Virus record (IMG/VR): IMGVR_UViG_3300023243_000351 | DNA length: 64,000 nucleotides | Source: a virus | Direction: 5' to 3' (one strand) | Shown here: piece by piece, positions 1-59,509 of the stretch | How positions within the stretch are numbered: position 1 is the stretch's first letter | Layout: the number at the start of each line of letters is the position of its first letter | Notes under the pieces: model-generated | Databases searched by the model: none | Told to the model about the DNA's origin: nothing | What the model saw: only the letters and a program-made list of their open reading frames with translations | Position numbers and translations under genes: made by a program

Positions 1-854
1 TTAGTTGAGAACGAGTCTACCTCTTTAAGCAGTTTTGCATTCATTAAATCTAAAATATTACCCAACATATCAACATCAAGTAGGTTAAAGTCTAGTCTTG
101 TGAACACTAACTCGTCTTCATCTAATTCATTGTTGTCAAGAAGATTAACGTCAAGTTCATTAAAATCTAATATGGACTGTTCACGTTCAGCCTGAGTCTC
201 GTCCTCTTTTTCTTTTGGCTTTTGTACAATTAACAGGTTGTTAATTTGATTTACATCTAGGTCCAATAGGACAGGTGGTGTTGGTACATTTTCTCGTGTG
301 TTGACCATTGTTGCTTGATATGCCTGGTTAAGTATTACCTGCCCTATATCGCTTTCAACAGATATCTCTCCCACAGTGCCATCTGCGTTGGGCAACAGTA
401 TAACAAGACTCCTGCCTATTTCGTCTACGGTCATGCTGAATGCAGTACCACGCACACCAATACGTGCTGTTGGTGTTTGTATGTCTACGCTTTGTCTGTT
501 GTTTTTAGCAATCTTACCTGATGCATACTTAACTGTGCCCAAGCCCACTTTCATCTTGAGCTTACTTTTTGTAGGGTCAGCGGCATCATATATGAAATCA
601 TCAATGATTAATTTGCTGTGTTTTTCAATTTGTATTTTGGTATCATCATTGAAGCCAATACCAATAATACCGTCGGCGGTGCTTATTGTGTCCAGCATCT
701 CTACACCCAGATCTTTTTCTACTGTGATTTTGTCATTATCGCGTGTAAGTTGTGCAGGGCCGGTTTGTTTTTCAACTGTACCGATCCCTGCATAACACGT
801 ACTAATCTGAAACGTTAATAGTAACGCTAGAAGTTGAACCATTTGTGTTAACAT
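1..854 (-). CDS. FecR-domain periplasmic protein (3'-partial, runs off the window; not in the ORF track)
   Basis: Manual translation: signal peptide MVQLLALLLTFQISTCYA, then KLIIDDFIYD...GTVKYASGKI...TPTARIGVRGTAFSMTVDEIGRS (FecR motif). Start at ATG 854 or 842, overlapping the curlin-like gene. Confidence 0.8.
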   Translation of the reverse strand, partial: MLTQMVQLLALLLTFQISTCYAGIGTVEKQTGPAQLTRDNDKITVEKDLGVEMLDTISTADGIIGIGFNDDTKIQIEKHSKLIIDDFIYDAADPTKSKLKMKVGLGTVKYASGKIAKNNRQSVDIQTPTARIGVRGTAFSMTVDEIGRSLVILLPNADGTVGEISVESDIGQVILNQAYQATMVNTRENVPTPPVLLDLDVNQINNLLIVQKPKEKEDETQAEREQSILDFNELDVNLLDNNELDEDELVFTRLDFNLLDVDMLGNILDLMNAKLLKEVDSFST

Positions 855-1500
855 CTACTGTACTCGCCTCTGCACCTGATTGAGTAATACTTAGAGTTGA
901 ACTGCTGCCGGTATGATTAAGCAGAGTGTCGTGTTGTGAAGCACCACTGTGGGTAACTGTAACGGTGTTGGTACTGCCGTCAATGTCAATGTCTGTGGTT
1001 TTGTCTAGGATACTAGTTGCTGTGGAATCCTCAGTTACTGTTATAGTATTACTGCCACTGCCGCTGGTTAGGTCAATGTCTACGTTAACATCGTCAACAA
1101 GACTTTGTGTAGCGCCAACGTTTACACCAACAGTGTTTGTGTTGCCTGGATTGGTGATGCTGATTGTAACATCATCACTGCCACCGTTGGTGCCTCCTGT
1201 AGTACCTACCTGTATGTCAATGTCTGAACTATTGCCATTAGTGGTTGCTGTTACACTGGCGTTGTCGCCGTAAACATCGTAATCTAATGCATTGCTTGAT
1301 CCAACTTGGTCAATGTCTAATATGGTGCTGGCGCCATCGCTCTTGCTGTCGTCACCGCTTGCGCCAACGCTGTTTCCAGAACCGTCTTGATCTATAGTGA
1401 TTGTGGCTGATGATCCAACCTGATCAATATAGATCAAGTTGTCAGCCCATGCCGGACTGCTTATTAATAAAGACATGAATGCTAATGCTATCCTTGTCAT
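802..1500 (-). CDS. Secreted curlin-like repeat protein (CsgA/CsgB-like)
   Basis: Signal peptide ending AWA; repeats such as IYIDQVGSSATITIDQDGSGN, LDIDQVGSSN, LSITQSG (x-Q-x-G-x-x-N); G/S/T/N/D-rich; adjacent to csgG. Confidence 0.65.
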   Translation of the reverse strand: MTRIALAFMSLLISSPAWADNLIYIDQVGSSATITIDQDGSGNSVGASGDDSKSDGASTILDIDQVGSSNALDYDVYGDNASVTATTNGNSSDIDIQVGTTGGTNGGSDDVTISITNPGNTNTVGVNVGATQSLVDDVNVDIDLTSGSGSNTITVTEDSTATSILDKTTDIDIDGSTNTVTVTHSGASQHDTLLNHTGSSSTLSITQSGAEASTVDVNTNGSTSSVTINVSD

Positions 1501-1609
1501 GTGTGTCGCTCCTTTTGGGTGGTCCCCATTATACGTGCCAATATCTTAGTATTATCGCACGTTAGTATTTAAATAATAAGTTGCTATCATTAAATATGTA
1601 TGTTATACG

Positions 1610-2428
1610 CTAGTCTACGTAATTACTCCATCCTGTTGATTTATCATCTAGCATAGTGTAATCCCATAGTTTTTTACGTTTTCCTTCTTTGGTTAACTCA
1701 ATTACTGCTTGTTCAACTGCCTGTTTTACTGCATAATTAACTGGTTCATTGGTACTGGTACCTGACTCTACCTCTAGAACTTGTGTGCCTTGATCGTAGA
1801 ATTTAAACACGTTTATGCCAAGACTAGTGCTTAAAATCGTCTTTTCGGTGCTCACATTTAGCAATACTTCTCCCGACAGTACACTTACCGCTCTAAGCCC
1901 TATTGTGACTACATCTACACGCCATTCTTGTTGTGCACCAATGCCCATAACCCTGGCACCAATACCACCTGTAAATTTGTTTGTATCATAACCAATAATG
2001 CCGCCTTCGATTATAATACCAGCAAACTTCATTGCACCCAATTTCTGTTTCTCATCAAACTCACTTCGTGCATTACGTATAATCTGTCTTTCTTTGATTA
2101 GGTTGTCCAGGCCATTGCGCTCTACAACATCAAAAAACTCACCATCTGCTAGTGCCATTAGTGCATCTATTAAGTATACTTCTGCACCTTGTGTTACTGC
2201 TGTACTGATGTTGGCAATGTTATCTGCTGGTTTACGTTGTCCAGTCTTATCTTGGAAACTGTATATTGCAACTGTCACAGGCTGTCCGCCTTTAATTGCA
2301 GGGAAATTAATTAAATGTTTCTTGACTGGGGTTTCAGCAAGCTCAGCTGGTCTGCCAAGTTTTGGATTAGTCGAGGCGCAACCAACTAACAAAAAAACCA
2401 ATAACGCCACACATATTCTACCTAGCAT
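1610..2428 (-). CDS. csgG: Curli secretion lipoprotein CsgG
   Basis: Lipobox LVGC; motifs VAIYSFQDKTGQRKP, STAVTQGA, VVERNGLDNLIKERQIIR, IIEGGIIGYDTN, TNEPVNYAV. Confidence 0.92.
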   Translation of the reverse strand: MLGRICVALLVFLLVGCASTNPKLGRPAELAETPVKKHLINFPAIKGGQPVTVAIYSFQDKTGQRKPADNIANISTAVTQGAEVYLIDALMALADGEFFDVVERNGLDNLIKERQIIRNARSEFDEKQKLGAMKFAGIIIEGGIIGYDTNKFTGGIGARVMGIGAQQEWRVDVVTIGLRAVSVLSGEVLLNVSTEKTILSTSLGINVFKFYDQGTQVLEVESGTSTNEPVNYAVKQAVEQAVIELTKEGKRKKLWDYTMLDDKSTGWSNYVD

Positions 2429-2437
2429 GCATCTCCT

Positions 2438-2980
2438 TTAAAAGGCAAAACTGGCAACAGGAATTTCAACCTTCGTAACTGATCCATCTGTTTGCGTTAC
2501 GTTTAATGTTACTAGGTCGTCGGTCATTTCATAAGCCACTGTATTGCCTAGTAGATCAATAGTACCACTACTTTGTGGATTTTCCCCAAACAGTTTGTCT
2601 GAAATTTGCTTACTAAGTTCAGCATAGATTCTACTTTCTAAATTAGCCAAGAACTTATTAACATTAGAGTTTTCTTTTTCACGCTCAATTTCTCTTGCCG
2701 CGGACTCTAACTTAGATTTGATTTCTGCTCTTCTAGTGTGTGTTAGGTTTTCAATGGTCAACACATGACTACTGTAGCCTATACCGTTAAAACTAGGGTT
2801 ATTAAACTTATAAGTTAAGTCGCCTGCTGTTGCCGCACTGATAAAAAACATGCCCACAAGGAATCCCATAATAAAACTCCAAAAGCCAAAACTCAACACT
2901 GTTGATATAGTATAGGTTACTGGGTTGGACTTTTTAAACTTCTGCCAGGCTGCCTTTTCATAACTACTTTGATGATTCAT
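2438..2980 (-). CDS. csgF: Curli assembly protein CsgF
   Basis: Mature N-terminus GDLTYKFNNPSFNG resembles the CsgF FxNPxFxG motif; FLANLESRIYAELS; directly upstream of csgG. Confidence 0.85.
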   Translation of the reverse strand: MNHQSSYEKAAWQKFKKSNPVTYTISTVLSFGFWSFIMGFLVGMFFISAATAGDLTYKFNNPSFNGIGYSSHVLTIENLTHTRRAEIKSKLESAAREIEREKENSNVNKFLANLESRIYAELSKQISDKLFGENPQSSGTIDLLGNTVAYEMTDDLVTLNVTQTDGSVTKVEIPVASFAF

Positions 2981-3293
2981 TTTTTGTTTTAGCTCCTTGG
3001 TCCTTGACCTGTTTTAGTTTTAGTTCTAATTCTTGTGCTTTTTGTAAATTTGCTCTAGCTTTTGCATCTAGTTCAAGAATCATGTTTAACTTTTGGTTCA
3101 GTCTAATTAAATCGTTATCAAGCATACGAATTCTGTCAATCAACGCAATCAGCGTCATTTGTGCTTCGCTTAGTACAGGATCAATTTCTTTTGTTGCCCA
3201 GGTCCATATGTAATATACAAAGTACCCTAACCCACACGCGGCTATAATCGGAAAACCATATTGGTTTATTGCGCCGGCTACATCAATGTCCAT
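2964..3293 (-). CDS. Small single-pass membrane protein with coiled-coil tail (GFPI motif)
   Basis: INQYGFPIIAACGLGYFVYYIW TM segment; paralog of 3310-3591; coupled to csgF. Confidence 0.7.
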   Translation of the reverse strand: MDIDVAGAINQYGFPIIAACGLGYFVYYIWTWATKEIDPVLSEAQMTLIALIDRIRMLDNDLIRLNQKLNMILELDAKARANLQKAQELELKLKQVKDQGAKTKNESSK

Positions 3294-3309
3294 TTAGTAG
3301 CCTCTCATT

Positions 3310-3591
3310 CTAGTCGCGACGAGCATCGTTCTTGCCGTCTGCTCTAGCAATACGGTTCAAGTCTGGTGTTACCCCAAATGCATTGCTCATGAGTGTGTCA
3401 ATACGAATCACGTCATGGTTCATGGTCTTAACACGATTGTCCAATGCGTTAATTATTCCTGTAAGTCCTTTTACACTGCCCATTACACCGTCAAGGATAA
3501 AGCGCATAGTAAGGAATACAAAGTACCCGCCGGCCAGTGCCGCGGCGATAGGAAAACCAACTTCGGCAATCAATTGAAGTATTTCTGTCAT
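3310..3591 (-). CDS. Small single-pass membrane protein (GFPI motif), paralog of 2964-3293
   Basis: IAEVGFPIAAALAGGYFVFL; DNRVKTMNHDVIRID aligns with DRIRMLDNDLIRLN; RBS AAGGAG and TAAATA upstream. Confidence 0.7.
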   Translation of the reverse strand: MTEILQLIAEVGFPIAAALAGGYFVFLTMRFILDGVMGSVKGLTGIINALDNRVKTMNHDVIRIDTLMSNAFGVTPDLNRIARADGKNDARRD

Positions 3592-6046: not shown

Positions 6047-6295
6047 TTAGTACATCTTTTTAGGCAACTGCTCTTCTAGTAGTTGCTTTTTCCATCTGCG
6101 AACTGCGGCGGCATGTTTCCGCTTGCGTCTTGTAGTGGGTTTTTCAAAAGATTCTTTTGAGCGTAAAGTTTGTAGTACTCCGCTTTCGCTAACTTTTTTC
6201 TTTAGTTTACGCATAGCTTTTTCTACATTGTCGTACTGGACTATTACCTTATTGCCAAAAGGTCTGCCTGGTTTTTTTTCAAAGTTGGTTGCCAT
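6047..6295 (-). CDS. rpsU: Phage-encoded 30S ribosomal protein bS21
   Basis: VIVQYDNVEKAMRKLKKKVSESGVLQTLRSKESFEKPTTRRKRKHAAAVRRW matches the bS21 pattern (EKP...RKRK..AA.RR). Confidence 0.92.
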   Translation of the reverse strand: MATNFEKKPGRPFGNKVIVQYDNVEKAMRKLKKKVSESGVLQTLRSKESFEKPTTRRKRKHAAAVRRWKKQLLEEQLPKKMY

Positions 6296-7434: not shown

Positions 7435-8788
7435 TCTTTTTCCTTAGTTTGTCGTCTACGTTACGCTCTAGTTCTGCTATATCGTCAGGTGCGCCTGTTT
7501 TTAGATTCTGTTCTACATATACTTCTTTAACTATTACAGTGTCAGCACCGTGTGTTTTTTTATTGCGAGCCCATTCAAACTGTTTGGTACTAGCAAGTAT
7601 AAGTGTAAGTGCTAGTGGATCAAACACAACAACCAACAACACTATGACCCAGCGTACTGCTTTTTCCAGTAGGTTTTGATCTGGACTTTGGTCGTATATA
7701 AATGCGGCAATGTATTTTATTGGTCCTACTTCTGCTTCTAGTTTCCTGTATTCTTTTTCGAACACAAAAACTTCTTCACGTATTTGATCAATCTCCGTTT
7801 GTTCTTTGTCAACAAAATTCTCAAGTTCTTCTACCCTACCGTCAATATCTACAGTTTTAGTGTTTGACTGGTCACGTAGTTTTTGTATTCTATTATTAAC
7901 TGATTGTAATTCTGATCCGTACTTGGCATCAATACTGCTAAGTGTTTCTGTTAACTTGGCGTTGATACTTTTGATCTCACGCTGTGCCGCACTGGCAACT
8001 GAAAGCTCATTTGCTTTGGCCTGCTGTGTTGCTTCTAACTCAATCTTCTTGGCTTGCTCTGTTGCTTCTAACTCAATCTTCTTGGCATTGGCTACTGCTT
8101 CATCTAGGCCTTTTTTACTAAAGGAGTTTTCATATCGAGCCTGGGCGGCGCCAATGTCTGCTGTCTTACGGGCTTGTGCTGTGGCGATGTTTGCTGTCTT
8201 ACGTTCTTGTGCGGCGGCTATGTCTGCTGACTTGCGCTCTGCGGCTTGTACTAATCTATCATTCTGTAACTGTATTTGCTTTTCTGCATCAGCACGAGCA
8301 TTGGTTTTTTCTTTGTTAACTTGCACACGGATTTCTTTTAGTGCATCGTTGTCACGATCAACTAGGTTGTCCACACGTACATCTTCACCTTTAGATAACC
8401 GGGTAAGCTCGTCGGTCCAACGAACTATCTTGGCTTCCGAACGAGTCATTTTACTCTCAAGCGATTTGATCTGTGCTACCTGTTCTTCACTTAGTGAAGT
8501 CTGTTCAATGTGTGCTTTACTCAGGAAGCCAAAAATACCCATTGAGGTGATAAACATCAACACAGTAATTGCCGGGATCAAGTACCATTTAAACAGTCTT
8601 GGTGCACGATGCCAATTTTGGTGTAACCAAACTGTAGCAACAATCTTACCAGTTTCTAGTGCGCCACCCATGATAATCACAGGCATGACTGCGGCACTGA
8701 ACACTGCAATCAAGCCAGCAATACTGTACCAAGCCGCAATGAACGAAATGGATATTGCTGTAACGAATGTAAGTATGGCTAATAGCAT
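7427..8788 (-). CDS. Membrane-anchored long coiled-coil protein
   Basis: Three N-terminal TM segments, long coiled coil with 11-aa repeats, AEVGPIKYIA, C-terminal TM (VVFDPLAL). Confidence 0.8.
   Translation of the reverse strand: MLLAILTFVTAISISFIAAWYSIAGLIAVFSAAVMPVIIMGGALETGKIVATVWLHQNWHRAPRLFKWYLIPAITVLMFITSMGIFGFLSKAHIEQTSLSEEQVAQIKSLESKMTRSEAKIVRWTDELTRLSKGEDVRVDNLVDRDNDALKEIRVQVNKEKTNARADAEKQIQLQNDRLVQAAERKSADIAAAQERKTANIATAQARKTADIGAAQARYENSFSKKGLDEAVANAKKIELEATEQAKKIELEATQQAKANELSVASAAQREIKSINAKLTETLSSIDAKYGSELQSVNNRIQKLRDQSNTKTVDIDGRVEELENFVDKEQTEIDQIREEVFVFEKEYRKLEAEVGPIKYIAAFIYDQSPDQNLLEKAVRWVIVLLVVVFDPLALTLILASTKQFEWARNKKTHGADTVIVKEVYVEQNLKTGAPDDIAELERNVDDKLRKKNG
8027..8245 (-). 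repeat. 33-bp (11-codon) tandem repeats within the coiled-coil gene
   Basis: AKKIELEATEQ/AKKIELEATQQ (near-identical 33-bp units) and RKSADIAAAQE/RKTANIATAQA/RKTADIGAAQA. Confidence 0.8.
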
Positions 8789-12825: not shown

Positions 12826-13055
12826 TACGCTACCTCCACTTTGTATTCAAAAGTATAAATTTCACGCATAATCTCGTAAACACGTTCACGGTCTACAGTA
12901 TCACCACCGCCCCAATTTACTTGGTCTGACATGCGACTAAAGTAAATGTCTACTGCATGGGCTATTTCTTTTTTAGTAAAGGCCATGTCGTATAAGCCAC
13001 CCATACCGTAAAAGTCGTTGCAGTAATTTACAAACTCTTTAACTGTTAACTGCAT
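12825..13055 (-). CDS. Hypothetical early protein (MQLTVKEF...)
   Basis: Start reassigned to 13055 behind AAGGAGCTAA; YCNDFYG...GGGDTVDRERV. Confidence 0.65.
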   Translation of the reverse strand: MQLTVKEFVNYCNDFYGMGGLYDMAFTKKEIAHAVDIYFSRMSDQVNWGGGDTVDRERVYEIMREIYTFEYKVEVA

Positions 13056-13057
13056 CT

Positions 13058-13146
13058 TTAGCTCCTTATTAGTTAATATACGTAGTATTATAGATGTTTT
13101 TGGACAAACCGTCAACCAAAAAAAATCCTTTGTAATCAACAACTTA
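13058..13146 (-). promoter_or_regulatory. Early-promoter repeat copy 1 (sigma70 promoter, RBS, IHF-like site)
   Basis: TTGACG (13115-13110), 17 bp, TATAAT (13092-13087); RBS AAGGAGCTAA; AATCAACAACTTA at 13134-13146. Confidence 0.85.
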
Positions 13147-13287
13147 GATTGTTTTGAAACAACGGAGTAATGCATCACCTAACCAAACAGTACACGAAAA
13201 GCCAGATTTTGTAGCGTTCTCAACCGCTTGCTCTAAGGTGTCAAACTGTTTTGAATAACCAAAGCTGTAAAAATCTACTTTATACAT
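13144..13287 (-). CDS. 47-aa hypothetical early protein (not in the ORF track)
   Basis: MYKVDFYSFGYSKQFDTLEQAVENATKSGFSCTVW...; directly behind promoter copy 2. Confidence 0.6.
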   Translation of the reverse strand: MYKVDFYSFGYSKQFDTLEQAVENATKSGFSCTVWLGDALLRCFKTI

Positions 13288-13288
13288 A

Positions 13289-13359
13289 TTAGCTCCTCGC
13301 TGTTACTAGTTAATATACTTACGTATTATAGAGTCTTTTGGACAAGCCGTCAACCAAAA
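13289..13359 (-). promoter_or_regulatory. Early-promoter repeat copy 2
   Basis: TTGACG (13353-13348), 17 bp, TATAAT (13330-13325); GAGGAGCTAA RBS; 30 bp identical to 48591-48620. Confidence 0.85.
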
Positions 13360-13451
13360 CTATACGTCATTGTATACAAAGACTTTTTTAGAGTGTTTTT
13401 AGAGTGGTTTCAGCCCAGGATTGGGCTGTTTGGTGTCACTTTGTTGTGGTT

Positions 13452-31258: not shown

Positions 31259-31890
31259 TTTTGGTAACTGGTAATTAACTCGTCTAAGCTGCCATTAGGA
31301 TTGACGTATGCTTTGTAATCGTCACTCCACCATCCTGCAGGTGTAAGGTTAAATCCTACATTCCCTCTGAGTCCTGTTCCGTCTCGCCCTAGTGCTTCCA
31401 TCCACTTGGATAACGGCATTGTCACACTGGCACTGTAGTTGCTTACATGTGGCGGAGTTGCTTTGATATAAACTTCACTAGGGTCTGTATTAGCAAACTT
31501 GTTAGGATCAACATAAACGTCTACGCTATCAATATACTGCCGTTCTGCGTCAGTAATTCTGCCACTTTGTAGTACACCTTGCTTGACCAAGTAATCAACT
31601 TTGCGTTTGATGTTAGCATTAACCTTTTCCATTTCTGTATCAATTGGATCGGATGTTGGGCCAGGTTGCTGTGTGTCTTGTGGTTGGTCAGGTTGCGGTG
31701 TATCTGTGGTTGTATCTGTGGTTGTATCTGTGGTTGTATCTGTGGCTGTATCAGTATCGTCTGCCTCGGGATCTGCCGGGGGTGCGATCCCTCTGTAATT
31801 GGACCACTTGGTAAAATCCGATCCCGAACCAGCGGCAACTCTATTGCGAATTACGTCCATTATTCCTTCAGTTATTTCTTTAATCTTCAT
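31255..31890 (-). CDS. Hypothetical protein with low-complexity T/D/Q linker
   Basis: Start reassigned to MKIKEITEG; (TDTT)n repeat. Confidence 0.6.
   Translation of the reverse strand: MKIKEITEGIMDVIRNRVAAGSGSDFTKWSNYRGIAPPADPEADDTDTATDTTTDTTTDTTTDTPQPDQPQDTQQPGPTSDPIDTEMEKVNANIKRKVDYLVKQGVLQSGRITDAERQYIDSVDVYVDPNKFANTDPSEVYIKATPPHVSNYSASVTMPLSKWMEALGRDGTGLRGNVGFNLTPAGWWSDDYKAYVNPNGSLDELITSYQK
31699..31752. repeat. 12-bp tandem repeat (TGTATCTGTGGT), about four units
   Basis: Directly visible; encodes (TDTT)n. Confidence 0.85.
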
Positions 31891-45462: not shown

Positions 45463-46620
45463 CTATTTTCCTTTGTATGTATTGTACACTTCTGTAGCAA
45501 AGAACACAACCTTTTCTGCACGTTGCAACAATAAAGTTTTTTCTGCACCATGCATCATGCCAGCACTGGTTACTAACAAAGGAATATCCTGTGGCCAGTG
45601 TGAACGATATTTGGTAAAGTACACAACCTTTTTGTCTGTTGTGTCGATAGGTTCATTGTTACGTGGTGCAAATAATACCTCATCTTCGTTAAAATAACCT
45701 AACACAAACTTATCGCGTAGTCTGTTACTAAGGTCTGGTTCGTATACATAAACTGGTAATCTTTCTGTAACCTGTGCATAGACAAATAGTGCATCCAGCA
45801 CTTCTTTGTTGGCATCTGGGTTGTAGTTTACATGATTACCTTTTAGTAGGTTAAACAAGCGTGTGCTTTCAAACTTTTTCAAGAACAAGTCTTCAACTTG
45901 CTGACTCACTAAGAAATAGCACACACCAGCCAGATCGATAACTTTTATTAAGTTGTTGATAGTTATGTCTCCTGCTTTCTTGGTCACAAATTCTAACAGC
46001 GATGCAGGGGCATTACGAATAACCAACTGAGTGTCCACAACATCCAACTGTACGTGTTGTGGTTTAGTCTGCGTTATCTTTTTCTCAATATCAAACAGTT
46101 GTGAGTCAATTTCAAAATCATGATGCCTCGCAATAAACATTGTAGCGGCTAAGTTGGGCTCTGTTAGTGCTATGCGCCACTGTTTGGTTTCTTCATTATG
46201 AAAACGCCAACTACCGCAACTGATCTTAGTAGCATCTCTAACCATGTCAACAATCTTAGGTTCAAAAGAAAACTGTAGTACTATTTGGTCTTGCTCTAGC
46301 CACATCATTCGTCTGCGATCAATTGTACGCAAAGGCTTTCTGTACTGGGGATTTTCAACAGGAGCAACGTCTACTCTTTTTGCCTCCAATTGTCGTTTGT
46401 ATTTTAAAATCAGTTTGCAAGCCAGTTCGGCCTGCTTGTCTGTTAACCCTTGTCCCCCGCGGACACTTGTGGCCATGCTGTTAATTACTCTAACATCATA
46501 CCTAGCCAAACTGATTATGGGCTCTATCTTCCCGAACATACCGTAGTACTTGTTGGTTACCGGATCCCTGTCACCATTTATAATTTCTAAGTAATCTTCA
46601 ACGTAGGTAAATTTTTGCAT
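45463..46620 (-). CDS. Conserved hypothetical protein
   Basis: 385 aa (LTDKQAELA..LILKY); promoter TTGACT, 17 bp, TATACT upstream. Confidence 0.7.
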   Translation of the reverse strand: MQKFTYVEDYLEIINGDRDPVTNKYYGMFGKIEPIISLARYDVRVINSMATSVRGGQGLTDKQAELACKLILKYKRQLEAKRVDVAPVENPQYRKPLRTIDRRRMMWLEQDQIVLQFSFEPKIVDMVRDATKISCGSWRFHNEETKQWRIALTEPNLAATMFIARHHDFEIDSQLFDIEKKITQTKPQHVQLDVVDTQLVIRNAPASLLEFVTKKAGDITINNLIKVIDLAGVCYFLVSQQVEDLFLKKFESTRLFNLLKGNHVNYNPDANKEVLDALFVYAQVTERLPVYVYEPDLSNRLRDKFVLGYFNEDEVLFAPRNNEPIDTTDKKVVYFTKYRSHWPQDIPLLVTSAGMMHGAEKTLLLQRAEKVVFFATEVYNTYKGK

Positions 46621-46656
46621 GTTAGATATAAGTATACACTAGTATTAGAAGAAGTC

Positions 46657-46743
46657 AAAAAAAGACCTACCGGATTATTACATCCGATAGGCCCAAGGGA
46701 ACCGACATAAAAGGAGCTAACAAAAATGTCGGTTTACTGCTCG
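46657..46743 (-). ncRNA. Candidate structured 3'-UTR RNA: anti-Shine-Dalgarno-loop hairpin plus terminator
   Basis: 9-bp stem (46700-46708 / 46726-46734) with loop UUUUGUUAGCUCCUUUU, then a 12-bp terminator stem with G-U pairs and U7. Confidence 0.55.
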
Positions 46744-47781
46744 TTAAGCACTCTTCATACAAGTTGACTCTGTCATTGCTTTCCAGTTACCCGGGAAGCT
46801 CTTGTATAATTGTGCAATCTTAATCGCCATACGCAAACTCATTTCACGTAATCTGCTCTTGTTAGTATCCATAAACTCAATAATATCATCTTGTCCACAT
46901 TGTTCAATATCCATCTCAGCAAACAATGCACCACTCTTAGCAATCTGTTTGATACGCAATATTTTATCACGCATACTGTCCAGTGTAAGATCCAAGTAGT
47001 GACATCGTGACTGCAATGCATCCAAGTGATCACGTAGTTTCTGTGAGCGTACCTTGTCAAACTTCAAATTGGTGATAAAAATCACACTGCCTTTGAAATA
47101 GAACGAGTCGGGTATGCCTTCGCTACGCAATACTCTGGATTCTGCTAACCAACTTATCTTGCGTTTCTTACCTGAGTCCAACGCACCCTTGAGCAAGTTA
47201 AGAGAAACGTCATCCAGTAGGATTGAGTCACAGTCATCAAACACAACCAAACAGTTCTTATCCGAATACTTGTAAAGTGTTTGGTATAAGCCAATTGGTG
47301 TTGCGGCACCTTTAACCACTTCTGCTCGTAGCCTGCGTCCTGCAATCTGATCAAACAGTGTAGCCTTTTCAATCTCTTTCTCCACACCGTAACTCTTACC
47401 AACTCCTGGAGGGCCGCTAACGATCATTGCTGTAATCTCGTTTTGTGTTGCGGCTTTGGTCATGTCCTCTAGTATTTGAAAACGCTGAGCAATCTGTTCA
47501 ATACGTTCTGCGTCACCTACATTAGCATTTGGATCTGCTTCAGCCTGTGTAACCAATTGCTGTACTGCTGTGTCTGAGTCAGTTGTGAACTCGTAGTCAG
47601 CCACACTGCTTAATTTAATACGAAGTTTTTCTGGGCACCCAGGAAACTGGTTACCATTTTCTACTGTTACGAATCCACCGTTGGTGCCAGGTTGGAACTG
47701 TTTTACTAGTTGGAAGGTCTTTCCACTGACATCCATATTGCGATATGAACCGTTTTTAATTTTTATATACGCTGTAGACAT
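46744..47781 (-). CDS. AAA+ ATPase
   Basis: Walker A GPPGVGKS; Walker B VVFDDCD; IFITN; ALQSR. Confidence 0.88.
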   Translation of the reverse strand: MSTAYIKIKNGSYRNMDVSGKTFQLVKQFQPGTNGGFVTVENGNQFPGCPEKLRIKLSSVADYEFTTDSDTAVQQLVTQAEADPNANVGDAERIEQIAQRFQILEDMTKAATQNEITAMIVSGPPGVGKSYGVEKEIEKATLFDQIAGRRLRAEVVKGAATPIGLYQTLYKYSDKNCLVVFDDCDSILLDDVSLNLLKGALDSGKKRKISWLAESRVLRSEGIPDSFYFKGSVIFITNLKFDKVRSQKLRDHLDALQSRCHYLDLTLDSMRDKILRIKQIAKSGALFAEMDIEQCGQDDIIEFMDTNKSRLREMSLRMAIKIAQLYKSFPGNWKAMTESTCMKSA

Positions 47782-47785
47782 ATAT

Positions 47786-47866
47786 TGCTCCTTTGAAAAT
47801 TATAAAATTAACAGTTGTTTTCTTATTATATGTGTATTATAGACTCGTTTGGTCCTTCTGTCAACC
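47786..47866 (-). promoter_or_regulatory. sigma70 early promoter (divergent repeat copy)
   Basis: TTGACA (47864-47859), 17 bp, TATAAT (47841-47836); AAGGAGCAAT RBS. Confidence 0.8.
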
Positions 47867-47869
47867 TTT

Positions 47870-48037
47870 TTAATGTACCATTTCCCTCACATCCACATCA
47901 CACTCAACTACCCAATCGTTAAATTGGGTAAACTTATTAACTTCTACACCTAAACCAACTGCTTCATTTACAAAATGTTGTAGTAGCGAATTATAAAGTT
48001 CGTCTGGCATAGATTCTTCATCAAACTTAATTTTCAT
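47870..48037 (-). CDS. Small hypothetical early protein
   Basis: MKIKFDEESMPDELYN...; TAATG coupling. Confidence 0.55.
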   Translation of the reverse strand: MKIKFDEESMPDELYNSLLQHFVNEAVGLGVEVNKFTQFNDWVVECDVDVREMVH

Positions 48038-48330
48038 TATAACGCTCCTGTCCATCTAATTTCAAAATCTTCTAATATGTTACCACGTGCAAAGTTGGTT
48101 GCTGGTGCGGCATAACATGCGGCTTTAAGTATGTCACCCTTGCGAAACTTTACACCGTCCTGCTTAACAATAAAACTGTGAACACAGCGGTGGCTGGTAA
48201 CTTTGTAATACTTCTTGCCTTCACGGATCTCAATACCGTCAGCAAACTCTTTCTGCATGTCTACATTATCGCAACGACTGTTGTAGTCTTGAATCATTTT
48301 TTGCTTTAGGATTTCTAATTGTTGTTCCAT
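48037..48330 (-). CDS. Conserved small phage early protein
   Basis: GKKYYKV...VHSFIVK...GDILKAA..APATNFARGNI; start behind AAGGAG. Confidence 0.7.
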   Translation of the reverse strand: MEQQLEILKQKMIQDYNSRCDNVDMQKEFADGIEIREGKKYYKVTSHRCVHSFIVKQDGVKFRKGDILKAACYAAPATNFARGNILEDFEIRWTGAL

Positions 48331-48343
48331 TTTAATCTCCTTA

Positions 48344-48577
48344 TTATTCACAAAAGTCAAATGCGTATTCGTCAGTGTCACCGCATCTGTTCATTTCCAC
48401 GTTGCCGTATACTGCACGTAGTTGGATCAGTACACTTTTCATTGCATCCATTGTCATACCATTAATAAACATTGTACCGTTGTACCAGTTTCTCCAGTAG
48501 AACTCGTCTTTAACTACTGTATCAAGAACTGTATCAACGTCTTGCTCTACCATAAGTTCGAATGCGTTATCAGTCAT
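48344..48577 (-). CDS. Hypothetical early protein
   Basis: First gene behind promoter copy 3; ends EYAFDFCE. Confidence 0.65.
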   Translation of the reverse strand: MTDNAFELMVEQDVDTVLDTVVKDEFYWRNWYNGTMFINGMTMDAMKSVLIQLRAVYGNVEMNRCGDTDEYAFDFCE

Positions 48578-48581
48578 TTTG

Positions 48582-48675
48582 TTTAGCTCCTTACTAGTTA
48601 ATATACTTACGTATTATAGACGATTTTGGACAACAAGTCAACCAAAATTATAAGTTGTTTACAATCAGCTAGTTA
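48582..48675 (-). promoter_or_regulatory. Early-promoter repeat copy 3 with IHF-like site
   Basis: TTGACT (48641-48636), 17 bp, TATAAT (48618-48613); AAGGAGCTAA; AATCAGCTAGTTA at 48663-48675. Confidence 0.85.
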
Positions 48676-48682
48676 CGTGTGC

Positions 48683-49012
48683 TTACTTTTCTTTTTTAAT
48701 GCTGTATATGATGCCTTGCGGTGTCTTTTGAGTAGTAATACCTTCCGCTTTCCAATGTGCATCAAGTTCAGCTAACATTTTTTTATCCGCTACCCTAGCG
48801 TTTTCTACTTTAATTGCTATTTTAGTTTTACGAAATGTTTTGTGAACTTGCTTGTGATAATAAATTAATTCAAGTGCAAGACGCATCTGTTCAGCTTTTA
48901 ATTGTTGTGCTTGTGAATAATTTTGCTTGTGCATATTGCTAGTACCGACTGCGTTCATACGTGCCGCCCAAGCAAACTGTCCTGCGCTTCTGTTGTTAGT
49001 AGTATCGTCCAT
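48683..49012 (-). CDS. Hypothetical early protein
   Basis: Start reassigned to MDDTTNNRSAGQF behind AAGGAGCTAA. Confidence 0.65.
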   Translation of the reverse strand: MDDTTNNRSAGQFAWAARMNAVGTSNMHKQNYSQAQQLKAEQMRLALELIYYHKQVHKTFRKTKIAIKVENARVADKKMLAELDAHWKAEGITTQKTPQGIIYSIKKEK

Positions 49013-49014
49013 TT

Positions 49015-49119
49015 TTAGCTCCTTATTAGTATTATTAATAACTGTACTACAAGTGCTATTATAGGCTATTTTGGACAAACCGTCAACCGTTTATTTTATT
49101 AAGTAAATTCAACAACTTA
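49015..49119 (-). promoter_or_regulatory. Early-promoter repeat copy 4
   Basis: TTGACG (49086-49081), 17 bp, TATAAT (49063-49058); ATTCAACAACTTA at 49107-49119. Confidence 0.8.
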
Positions 49120-50255
49120 GCGGACTTATCAGATAGGAAATGCTGTTGATTGTGAAGGAGAATTTTACGCATGTCATGCTGATCAACCATGTGTTCCGAG
49201 TGGCTCATGCGGCTGATTTGTTCTACAGTATGTAAACATTGTTTTAGACGTTGTTCCGGATCTTCTATGCTGTCATAACTTTCGTCTATATAATCCCCAA
49301 ACGTCTTATAGCCCAACTCATGTAGTAATTGTAAACTACCCGATGCTCCAACAATAACAAATGGTTGTAGGTTTAGTATGGGCTTGAATGTTTTCTCAGT
49401 TAAGAACAAGTTATTGATGTGTGTTTCAACAATCACATTATAATATGCCTCCTGAAAGAAACGTGTATCTATTAGTTTGTGTGAGTTGTGTTCGTAGTCT
49501 TGTAAATCATCACAACGATATGGTGGAGTAAATCTTTCTAATACGGTATGGTCCCAAGTATCCCAATTACCAGTATCACTGTCCCTTGTTTCGTATTCAA
49601 CTTGGTACTTGCGGTCTGTGTAACTAAAGTATGCGTCATCAACAAGCCCATGTTCGACTAGTGTTGCGGCAAACAATCTTCTAAATGGTTTGTCCACACG
49701 GTTAAGACAAGTAAACTTTTTGCTTCTAATATCTGTGTTAACTTGCATCACATAGCCACCATCTGCATGCAAGTACTTGTAGTAGAGTTCGTCGTCTGGA
49801 AAATAAGAATAAAACTCGCCCTCTACTAGGGCATTAGCAATAGTAAACTTGAACTGTTGATACGGTATGTTATGTTTTGTTAGTTGCTCACGTATACACC
49901 GATCAATATGCCAATCAATGTTGTCGCCTTCGCTGTAATAGAACCATATAGTGCATAAGCCTTGTCGTGCCAATTCTTTAGCACGGTCACTTACCAATGC
50001 AATATAATCTATACTTGGGTCAAAGTAATTTAGATTTACAGGATATACACACTGTTCGGTTACATCACGTACATGTTCAACACGGTACTTGATATTGTGT
50101 TTCCAAAGATATCGCAGGAATCTAAATTCGTAACTGTACGGCGGGGAGATAGCAAGGTCCCACCATTGCTCGCTTCTAAATTCAATAGTGTTGTCTGTAA
50201 CTAAGTTTGGTAAGTAGACACCCCCACGTTCGTAGGTGTCAAATACAAATATCAT
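49083..50255 (-). CDS. Putative glycosyltransferase (GT10-like C-terminal motif)
   Basis: FTCLNR...NVIVET...FLTEKTFKPI...PFVIVG...LGYKTF..IDESYD. Confidence 0.55.
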   Translation of the reverse strand: MIFVFDTYERGGVYLPNLVTDNTIEFRSEQWWDLAISPPYSYEFRFLRYLWKHNIKYRVEHVRDVTEQCVYPVNLNYFDPSIDYIALVSDRAKELARQGLCTIWFYYSEGDNIDWHIDRCIREQLTKHNIPYQQFKFTIANALVEGEFYSYFPDDELYYKYLHADGGYVMQVNTDIRSKKFTCLNRVDKPFRRLFAATLVEHGLVDDAYFSYTDRKYQVEYETRDSDTGNWDTWDHTVLERFTPPYRCDDLQDYEHNSHKLIDTRFFQEAYYNVIVETHINNLFLTEKTFKPILNLQPFVIVGASGSLQLLHELGYKTFGDYIDESYDSIEDPEQRLKQCLHTVEQISRMSHSEHMVDQHDMRKILLHNQQHFLSDKSAKLLNLLNKING

Positions 50256-58501: not shown

Positions 58502-59509
58502 TTATTCTAAATCGCTTGCTTGTAATACTGGCAGACTGTTCATTCTATCCATCATTTCTTTACGTTCTGCTTTACTCATTGGGATCATACCAGAATCAGC
58601 AAGGATACCATCATCACTCCAGTGCTTTGTCCACTCAGTCATGTATTCCACAATACCCGGAACAACATTAACATGTGCATGCTTGACATAGAAGTAAAGA
58701 GCACGTGATGCTTTATACTTGCCTTCAGCAATAGCATCAAAGGTTGGTATAACACCAGATAGTTCTGCACCCTGTACCGTGTCACTGTTCTGATCCAAAT
58801 ACGAAAACCCAAATATACCAAATGCAGTTAAATCCTCATTCAGCTTTTGGACAATCAGGTTGTCCTGTTCGCCCGCCTCTATGTAAGCTCCGTCAGTGCG
58901 CATTGCACGACAGTTCTTTGCTTTATACCCAATTGCTTTTACTTCAGGGTCTTTTTTACAGTATGCTTTTTCATTAACAATCTCAGCAAAACTTGCTCTT
59001 GTGCCTGATGTTGTTGGTGGGCCATACACACGTATTTCTATGTCAGGAAGTTCTGAATTAACATCCTGCCATGTCTTATAAGGATTCTCCACCATCTTGC
59101 CATTTACTGGAACCTTGGCAGTTAGTGCCTTGCCAAGATCGCTTAATGAAATTTTAAGTTGTGGTACATCTTTTGAGTTTGCTAATACTATACCATCATA
59201 CCCAACTTTAATTTCAGTAACAGTAACTTTATTTTTATCGCAATAGGCAAGTTCTTTCACCTTCATTCTTGAGCTTGCATTGCCAATATCAATAAACTGT
59301 GTGCCAATCCCATCACACACGCCTTTCTTACCAACGCTAGAGCCACCCGATTCTACTACTGGGGTTTTTAAGTTTGGATTTTTTCCTAGTTGTTCTGCCA
59401 CAATTGTTGCGAACGGAAATACGGTTGAAGATCCAGCAATACTAACGTAATCTCTTGCATGGATTGATGAACTAAATGCTAATACTAACACAGCGAGTAA
59501 TAATTTCAT
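58502..59509 (-). CDS. pstS: Phosphate-binding periplasmic protein PstS
   Basis: IAGSSTVFP, ESGGSSVG, IGNASSRMK, GYDGIV, GPPTTSGTR, SRALYFYVK. Confidence 0.93.
   Translation of the reverse strand: MKLLLAVLVLAFSSSIHARDYVSIAGSSTVFPFATIVAEQLGKNPNLKTPVVESGGSSVGKKGVCDGIGTQFIDIGNASSRMKVKELAYCDKNKVTVTEIKVGYDGIVLANSKDVPQLKISLSDLGKALTAKVPVNGKMVENPYKTWQDVNSELPDIEIRVYGPPTTSGTRASFAEIVNEKAYCKKDPEVKAIGYKAKNCRAMRTDGAYIEAGEQDNLIVQKLNEDLTAFGIFGFSYLDQNSDTVQGAELSGVIPTFDAIAEGKYKASRALYFYVKHAHVNVVPGIVEYMTEWTKHWSDDGILADSGMIPMSKAERKEMMDRMNSLPVLQASDLE

Follow-up and report, generated by a model that had tools for sequence, protein, structure and literature searches.

A conserved hairpin at the 3' end of an early phage transcript with a loop that covaries with the ribosome-binding site of its NrdC.10-family ATPase gene

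A family of uncultured giant phages from aquatic habitats has an early transcript, that of a NrdC.10-family AAA+ ATPase gene, ending in a hairpin that is a conserved structured RNA on the mRNA strand. Comparison among relatives identifies the ATPase gene's own ribosome-binding site (RBS) as the family-wide conserved partner of the hairpin loop, and loop and RBS very probably pair as RNA. The hairpin is probably an autoregulatory anti-RBS element of this transcript. The element was examined in the window, the whole stretch of 64,000 nucleotides analysed here, which is part of a large uncultured phage with 40% GC and nearly all genes on the minus strand. Related contigs reach 250–374 kb, and a helicase comparison places PA5oct and Paride (53%) and Atu_ph07 (47%) as the closest cultured relatives. 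The original prediction described a trans-acting anti-RBS RNA directed at the early cassettes; the anti-RBS loop that tracks an RBS in relatives stands, whereas the partner found across the family is the ATPase RBS. The features at the 3' end of the ATPase cluster are as follows.

46700–46734, minus strand: anti-RBS hairpin with a 9-bp stem and 17-nt loop (folding, stem covariation, strand test)
46709–46725, minus strand: open loop with a conserved GCUCC core, complementary to GGAGC-type RBSs (alignments, unpaired probability)
46657–46694, minus strand: intrinsic terminator closing the early cluster (13 pairs including G·U, U7 tail)
46744–47781, minus strand: NrdC.10-family AAA+ ATPase, 345 aa (PHROG 1250)
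47787–47794, minus strand: RBS of the ATPase gene, covarying loop partner across the family (duplex energies, tree tests)
47836–47864, minus strand: consensus early promoter of the ATPase transcript (promoter scan, 12/12)
46631–46658, minus strand: sigma70-type promoter of the next gene (promoter scan, 10/12), its −35 overlapping the terminator U tail
45463–46620, minus strand: near-leaderless 385-aa gene, the usual downstream neighbour, conserved behind the terminator
46726–46767, plus strand: 13-codon micro-ORF, incidental and not conserved (relatives' ATG count)

The minus-strand hairpin and the terminator, with its G·U pairs and U7 tail, were confirmed as originally described. The segment 46655–46743 folds with an energy of −32.2 kcal/mol (z −4.4), and none of 200 shuffled sequences was equally stable. 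Folding gives the loop an unpaired probability of mostly 0.7–0.99, with one position at 0.52. The terminator is the sole minus-strand terminator-like site in the region 46400–49300, and three early promoters (49086, 48641, and 47864) feed the cluster. As the scan detected no minus-strand terminator ahead of 46694, the RBSs of the genes at 49012, 48577, and 47781 can share hairpin-ended transcripts. The genes at 13055 and 13287 and the curli-like genes at 2980, 3591, and 1500 are out of cis reach. A promoter scan found no internal promoter near the hairpin and no plus-strand promoter upstream of it, and an Rfam scan of the whole window against 4227 families gave 0 matches at the gathering threshold. 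The 385-aa gene has no Pfam, PHROG, or cultured-phage match. RNA runs contain only 6–7% of the window's words, as assembled contigs; contig breaks at 46710 and 46734 were considered as RNA ends and rejected, as the same breaks occur in the run containing the stretch itself.

The four start regions cited in the original prediction are placed correctly, with AAGGAGCTAA exact at 48583–48592, 49015–49024, and 13058–13067 and carrying one mismatch at 13289–13298. Two equally good partners lie at 2980 and 3591 in the curli-like cluster, and a further partner is the RBS of the ATPase gene itself. When one mismatch is tolerated, the 10-mer is seen 7 times versus 4.0 expected. This count is unremarkable; what carries the case is how the element is conserved and covaries among relatives. 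The proposed test, that the loop be conserved and track the RBS in relatives, came out in favor of pairing, as the loop is kept and the ATPase RBS covaries with it.

Conservation was assessed using 239 ATPase loci, of which 142 remained after removal of near-duplicates and 105 possessed both a start codon and a terminator. The element is recognisable in 98 of these 105 loci (GCUCC core in 91, variant core in 7), while its absence from the other seven indicates that it is dispensable. It always lies directly 5' of the terminator, at 0–4 kb from the ATPase stop codon and with changing genes in between, indicating that it belongs to the terminator rather than the stop codon. Across 19 copies of equal length, 16 of the 17 loop positions are invariant and two-sided changes occur in six of the eight stem pairs; 93% of stem cells pair in these copies, versus 34–50% for slid partners. 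Scanning by motif first turned up exact copies of the window's 19-letter loop in 39 viral contigs (37 at the ATPase locus, 2 elsewhere), with a U-run following the loop in all 39. Multiple copies per genome were ruled out by the single copy found in each of five large contigs, two of them at least 90% complete.

When pairs were counted in a strand-neutral way in 80 distinct stems, 30 G·U stood against 2 A·C on the mRNA strand, identifying this strand as the working strand. That the working molecule is instead the other strand or the DNA, as a decoy that mimics the RBS and draws off a translational repressor or as the RBS of a micro-ORF, is very improbable. A decoy would also track the RBS, the plus strand of the window copy folds as well (−12.0 vs −10.6 kcal/mol), and the same 19 letters form a true RBS in an unrelated virus. 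Against these points stand the G·U excess, the fixed position of the element relative to the mRNA-strand terminator, and the lack of an upstream plus-strand promoter in the scan. The micro-ORF, which the original prediction held out as an alternative with the motif as its true RBS, does exist but was rejected, since its ATG is missing from 71 of 95 relatives, the 87%-identical locus L001 among them, and variably spaced in the rest. Similarly, a conserved anti-AUG was not borne out, with an antisense ATG in 24 of 95 relatives, approximately the chance level, and at variable spacing. The RBS in the unrelated virus (L264, L277) is the exact complement of the window loop, with an ATG, and occurs with neither stem nor ATPase; this match is probably chance.

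The relationship between the loop and the ATPase RBS was probed with a duplex test that used the 48 nt before the terminator in the 105 loci and assumed no motif. Predicted duplexes are stronger with a locus's own ATPase RBS than with foreign ones (−15.3 vs −13.0 kcal/mol; permutation p 5e-5), while a control region gives −8.9 kcal/mol, and the longest Watson–Crick run between loop and RBS averages 8.0. The window loop forms 8 contiguous pairs with its ATPase RBS, or 12 with one bulge (−13.0 kcal/mol). On an ATPase tree built by a quick method, with some anchors set by hand, 28 branch-disjoint pairs gave 20 for, 5 against, and 3 ties (p=0.004, 25 informative); this count has L017 on the against side, and the L017 anchor differs in the upstream-RBS and +5 tests. 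At position +5, the base after GGAGC, 7.9 of 13 independent pairs limited to well-supported branches changed the same way and 0.6 the opposite way (median p 0.02). The other single positions point in the same direction, with none reaching 0.05.

Changes in the core are likewise mirrored. By our own count, the ATPase RBS contains GGAGC in 88 of the 91 GCUCC-loop loci versus 2 of 14 others. The SD-led (Shine–Dalgarno-led) genes between the ATPase and the terminator have GGAGC in 1 of 40 cases, many of them homologues and hence non-independent. An RBS with GGGGC (GGGGCUAG) is matched by a loop with GCCC (CUAGCCC) in two separate clades (L146; L153 and L155), and GGAGU is matched by ACUCC in L090 and L149. 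Further mirrored changes occur in L151, L068, and L143, where GGAGCGAAA is paired with UUUCGCUCC while the sister locus L072 has GGAGCUAA. Two loci (L120, L166) have lost the stem and kept the complement before the terminator, ACACGGA with UCCGUGU. The recurrence of mirrored changes rules out chance or a one-off inverted duplication as the origin of the match. Mismatches after the core are found in few loci (L136, L158, L215, L013). One locus, L144, combines an L043-type ATPase and RBS with a mismatched, window-type loop and is a recent recombinant, and L100 contains a second anti-SD just 5' of the hairpin that fits its changed RBS.

Covariation of this kind bears on the pairing, and not on its sign or on an intramolecular versus an intermolecular route. 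In the mechanism we propose, strong host-type promoters would transcribe the cluster and ribosomes would load at once. When transcription arrives at the terminator, the stem displays the open loop, as folding and covariation show, and the loop would pair over 8–12 nt with the SD region of the NrdC.10-like ATPase gene, as suggested by covariation. The resulting duplex would block further initiation and cap the ATPase output per message. Repression, mainly of the ATPase cluster, is the outcome that we favor, if with some reserve. The pairing may occur by fold-back on the same molecule, a route put forward tentatively; action of a released 3' fragment on the cluster's own messages is possible, if somewhat doubtful. 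Folding of the whole transcript gives P 0.08 for the RBS–loop pairs, which is uninformative because nested folding is unable to represent a loop-to-leader pseudoknot.

All of the covariation evidence would fit equally well a helix that controls message stability or processing and not ribosome access. There is precedent for this in Bacillus subtilis hbs, in which a 14-bp helix joining the 5'-UTR with the 3'-UTR shields an RNase Y site and modulates cleavage (Braun 2017, PMC5737220). The hbs message resembles the phage element in the long-range pairing of two message ends and differs from it in that no SD-aimed loop is reported. Furthermore, the phage helix is short (8–12 bp) and might be displaced by a ribosome. 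A stability role is nonetheless judged quite unlikely, as the pairing always has the SD core at its centre and runs on in the direction of the start codon, the geometry of a translational blocker, while the AU-rich leader has other places for pairing.

The ATPase RBS is one of several predicted partners of the loop in the window. The remaining early cassettes are listed here with their predicted duplex energies.

48583–48641, minus strand: 77-aa gene at 48577, its early promoter cassette with RBS (−17.7 kcal/mol)
49015–49086, minus strand: gene at 49012 in the same cluster, its early promoter cassette with RBS (−14.7 kcal/mol)
13058–13117, minus strand: gene at 13055, its distal early cassette with RBS (−14.7 kcal/mol), in trans reach only
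13289–13355, minus strand: gene at 13287, its distal early cassette with RBS (−17.6 kcal/mol), in trans reach only

These sites raise the alternative that a stable processed small RNA acts in trans to shut off the genome's GGAGC-led early cassettes, giving an early-to-middle switch. This is unlikely, although several observations are in line with it. Besides the ATPase cassette, the window has four early cassettes that each contain GGAGCUAA, with duplex energies of −14.7 to −17.7 kcal/mol; two lie at a distance of 33 kb. Four or more RBSs in the window are stronger partners (−14.7 to −17.9 kcal/mol) than the ATPase RBS (−13.0 kcal/mol). In both groups of loci, promoter-proximal GGAGC sites gain approximately 2 kcal/mol when paired with their own loop instead of a foreign one, and no such gain was seen for sites without GGAGC or past the terminator. 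All nine family-type early cassettes of one relative (G001) carry AGGAGC, several RBSs of the window's sub-lineage end in AACAAAUG, a match to the loop's 5' half, and the element is single-copy, with a stem and terminator that folding suggests could make a stable fragment of 70–80 nt. However, in 38 of 45 loci outside the window's sub-lineage the ATPase RBS is a stronger partner than the best one upstream, even though this comparison leans to upstream sites by picking the best of several. At distal sites the +5 base matches in about a third to a half of cases versus 74% of ATPase RBSs, and many distal cassettes carry GGAGU. A switch of this kind would also draw on a hairpin that has no nearby internal promoter. 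If it were true, a lytic jumbo phage would use a 3'-UTR-derived small RNA for which GGAGC is the address read by the loop, and later genes would escape via other SD variants or leaderless messages, making it an RNA counterpart of T4 RegB.

The distal cassettes appear to track the loop weakly. In about 8–10 large contigs counted by eye, the base after GGAGC is C in 11 and T in 3 distal cassettes with G-loops, and C in 6 and T in 9 with A-loops (Fisher p 0.06); these sites are non-independent, being duplicated within genomes. Joint shut-off of the early cassettes, as put forward originally, is hence not a trait that the sequences of the family as a whole show. The idea that the loop explains why the early genes share an RBS also fell away, since the early promoter-leader cassettes form a family of duplicated repeats that need no RNA to account for their common RBSs. 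In the window these repeats are 62–88% alike (13065–13129, 13303–13367, 47834–47866, 48591–48655, and 49045–49088), and relatives contain 6–18 copies per large contig. Other repeats in the window lie within coding genes (a 12-nt tandem repeat at 31699–31758 and 33-nt repeats at 8016–8234).

The window's own sub-lineage differs from this pattern. It consists of 23 loci in which the loop is nearly invariant and the ATPase RBS drifts after GGAGC, and the loop pairs with AAAGGAGC, both upstream of the SD and across it. Here the upstream RBS is the stronger partner in 12 of 18 loci, again in a comparison that favors upstream sites. The 48577 cassette is a strong predicted partner on a read-through transcript shared with the hairpin. 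Since upstream early RBSs fit as well or better, multi-target action is possible in this sub-lineage, and the element is probably also directed at the upstream RBSs that share its read-through transcripts. The curli-like cluster (802–3591) was recognised by eye from CsgG-like and curlin-like genes; at 1500, 2980, and 3591 it has RBSs of the GGAGC type that rank among the best loop partners, and the curlin-like gene of G001 also has GGAGCUAAA.

A still broader reach, possibly to SD-led host mRNAs, was raised in the original prediction. A general anti-SD RNA that shuts down such host messages and spares leaderless phage ones is highly unlikely. The window loop shares CUCCUUU with what we take to be the usual proteobacterial anti-SD, and 10 of the 81 window genes look leaderless. 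However, the GCUCC core mismatches canonical GGAGG, and the loop's 3' side differs between lineages, following the phage ATPase RBS and not a fixed host SD, which leaves host shut-off unsupported. A weak hint to the host comes from a PstS-like phosphate-binding protein (58502–59509), whose nearest matches are marine Burkholderiales/Betaproteobacteria and Litoricola-type Gammaproteobacteria (72–78% identity). The ten genes (minus strand, starts at 6295, 8788, 10378, 11100, 15758, 28024, 33578, 36395, 38099, and 60423) have a TATAAT, TAAATA, or TAAGTA box 5–7 nt before the ATG and no SD; these middle and late genes are probable leaderless mRNAs. Among them is a phage-encoded bS21 ribosomal protein (6047–6295, PHROG 21469), which is apparently leaderless and could bear on SD-dependent versus leaderless initiation.

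Several known regulators share aspects of the phage element. Staphylococcus aureus RNAIII and RsaE are multi-target RNAs that display C-rich anti-SD seeds with UCCC motifs in loops. The phage hairpin likewise displays an anti-SD seed in a loop, but its core is GCUCC with lineage-specific flanks, as opposed to UCCC directed at canonical SDs. T4 RegB shuts off early messages at GGAG, a likeness in effect only, as RegB is a protein nuclease. In hok, fold-back of the 3' end times translation, much as could be the case here, and an antitoxin RNA is present. Fold-back inhibition in hok is cited in work on icaR of S. aureus, in which a 3'-UTR anti-SD motif pairs with the message's own SD over ~40 nt to make an RNase III substrate, with cis versus trans action left open (Ruiz de los Mozos 2013, PMC3868564). 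In the phage, too, the anti-SD and its target SD belong to one transcript, with the anti-SD in the 3' UTR. In contrast to icaR, its duplex is 8–12 bp, its loop is held by a covarying stem adjoining the terminator, and the element, in a lytic-type phage, lies up to 4 kb past the target gene and shows compensatory evolution across a family. OppZ and CarZ of Vibrio cholerae are autoregulatory 3'-UTR-derived sRNAs that inhibit translation of their own operon following RNase E release and with Hfq, and intramolecular pairing has been excluded for OppZ (Hoyos 2020, PMC7398697). Like these sRNAs, the phage element sits at an operon's 3' end, shares its terminator, and, judging by covariation, pairs with one of the gene initiation regions in its operon. 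It differs in belonging to a phage and not a bacterial operon. Its U-tailed terminator would be compatible with Hfq; a sequence relation to OppZ and CarZ was judged from the empty Rfam scan. By analogy, the element would work like icaR or OppZ/CarZ while falling outside any described family, and no description of the anti-RBS 3' element was found in the literature, the Minerva preprint included.

To our knowledge, regulation by end-to-end pairing of prokaryotic messages is limited to a few single-gene cases, and we know of almost no phage small RNAs with a known target. This phage family would supply natural compensatory mutants in which a 3' loop follows an RBS 1–5 kb away. The natural loop/RBS pairs are ready material for distinguishing cis from trans action and possibly for use as orthogonal translational brakes. 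In addition, these phages would keep the widespread, unexplained NrdC.10 ATPase at a tightly limited dose, which gives a lead on what it does. The predicted model of the ATPase has an N-terminal beta domain and an AAA+ domain, and its best viral fold match is NrdC.10 of Aeromonas phage 25 (E 1e-31). A fold search in the PDB returned generic AAA+ matches only, with no clue to RNA binding.

Ten cultured NrdC.10 loci, from Straboviridae, Ackermannviridae, Mimasvirus, and Asteriusvirus and including T4-like loci, lack the hairpin, and a scan of viral contigs seeded with PA5oct found nothing. In the cultured Pseudomonas phage PA5oct itself, the NrdC.10 stop is directly followed by a hairpin of another kind (L081:5164–5185). 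The 3' arm of this hairpin can form 8 Watson–Crick pairs, or 12 with G·U, with the phage's own NrdC.10 RBS, as seen in one lineage only, making it a possible analogue in which the anti-RBS is held in the stem.
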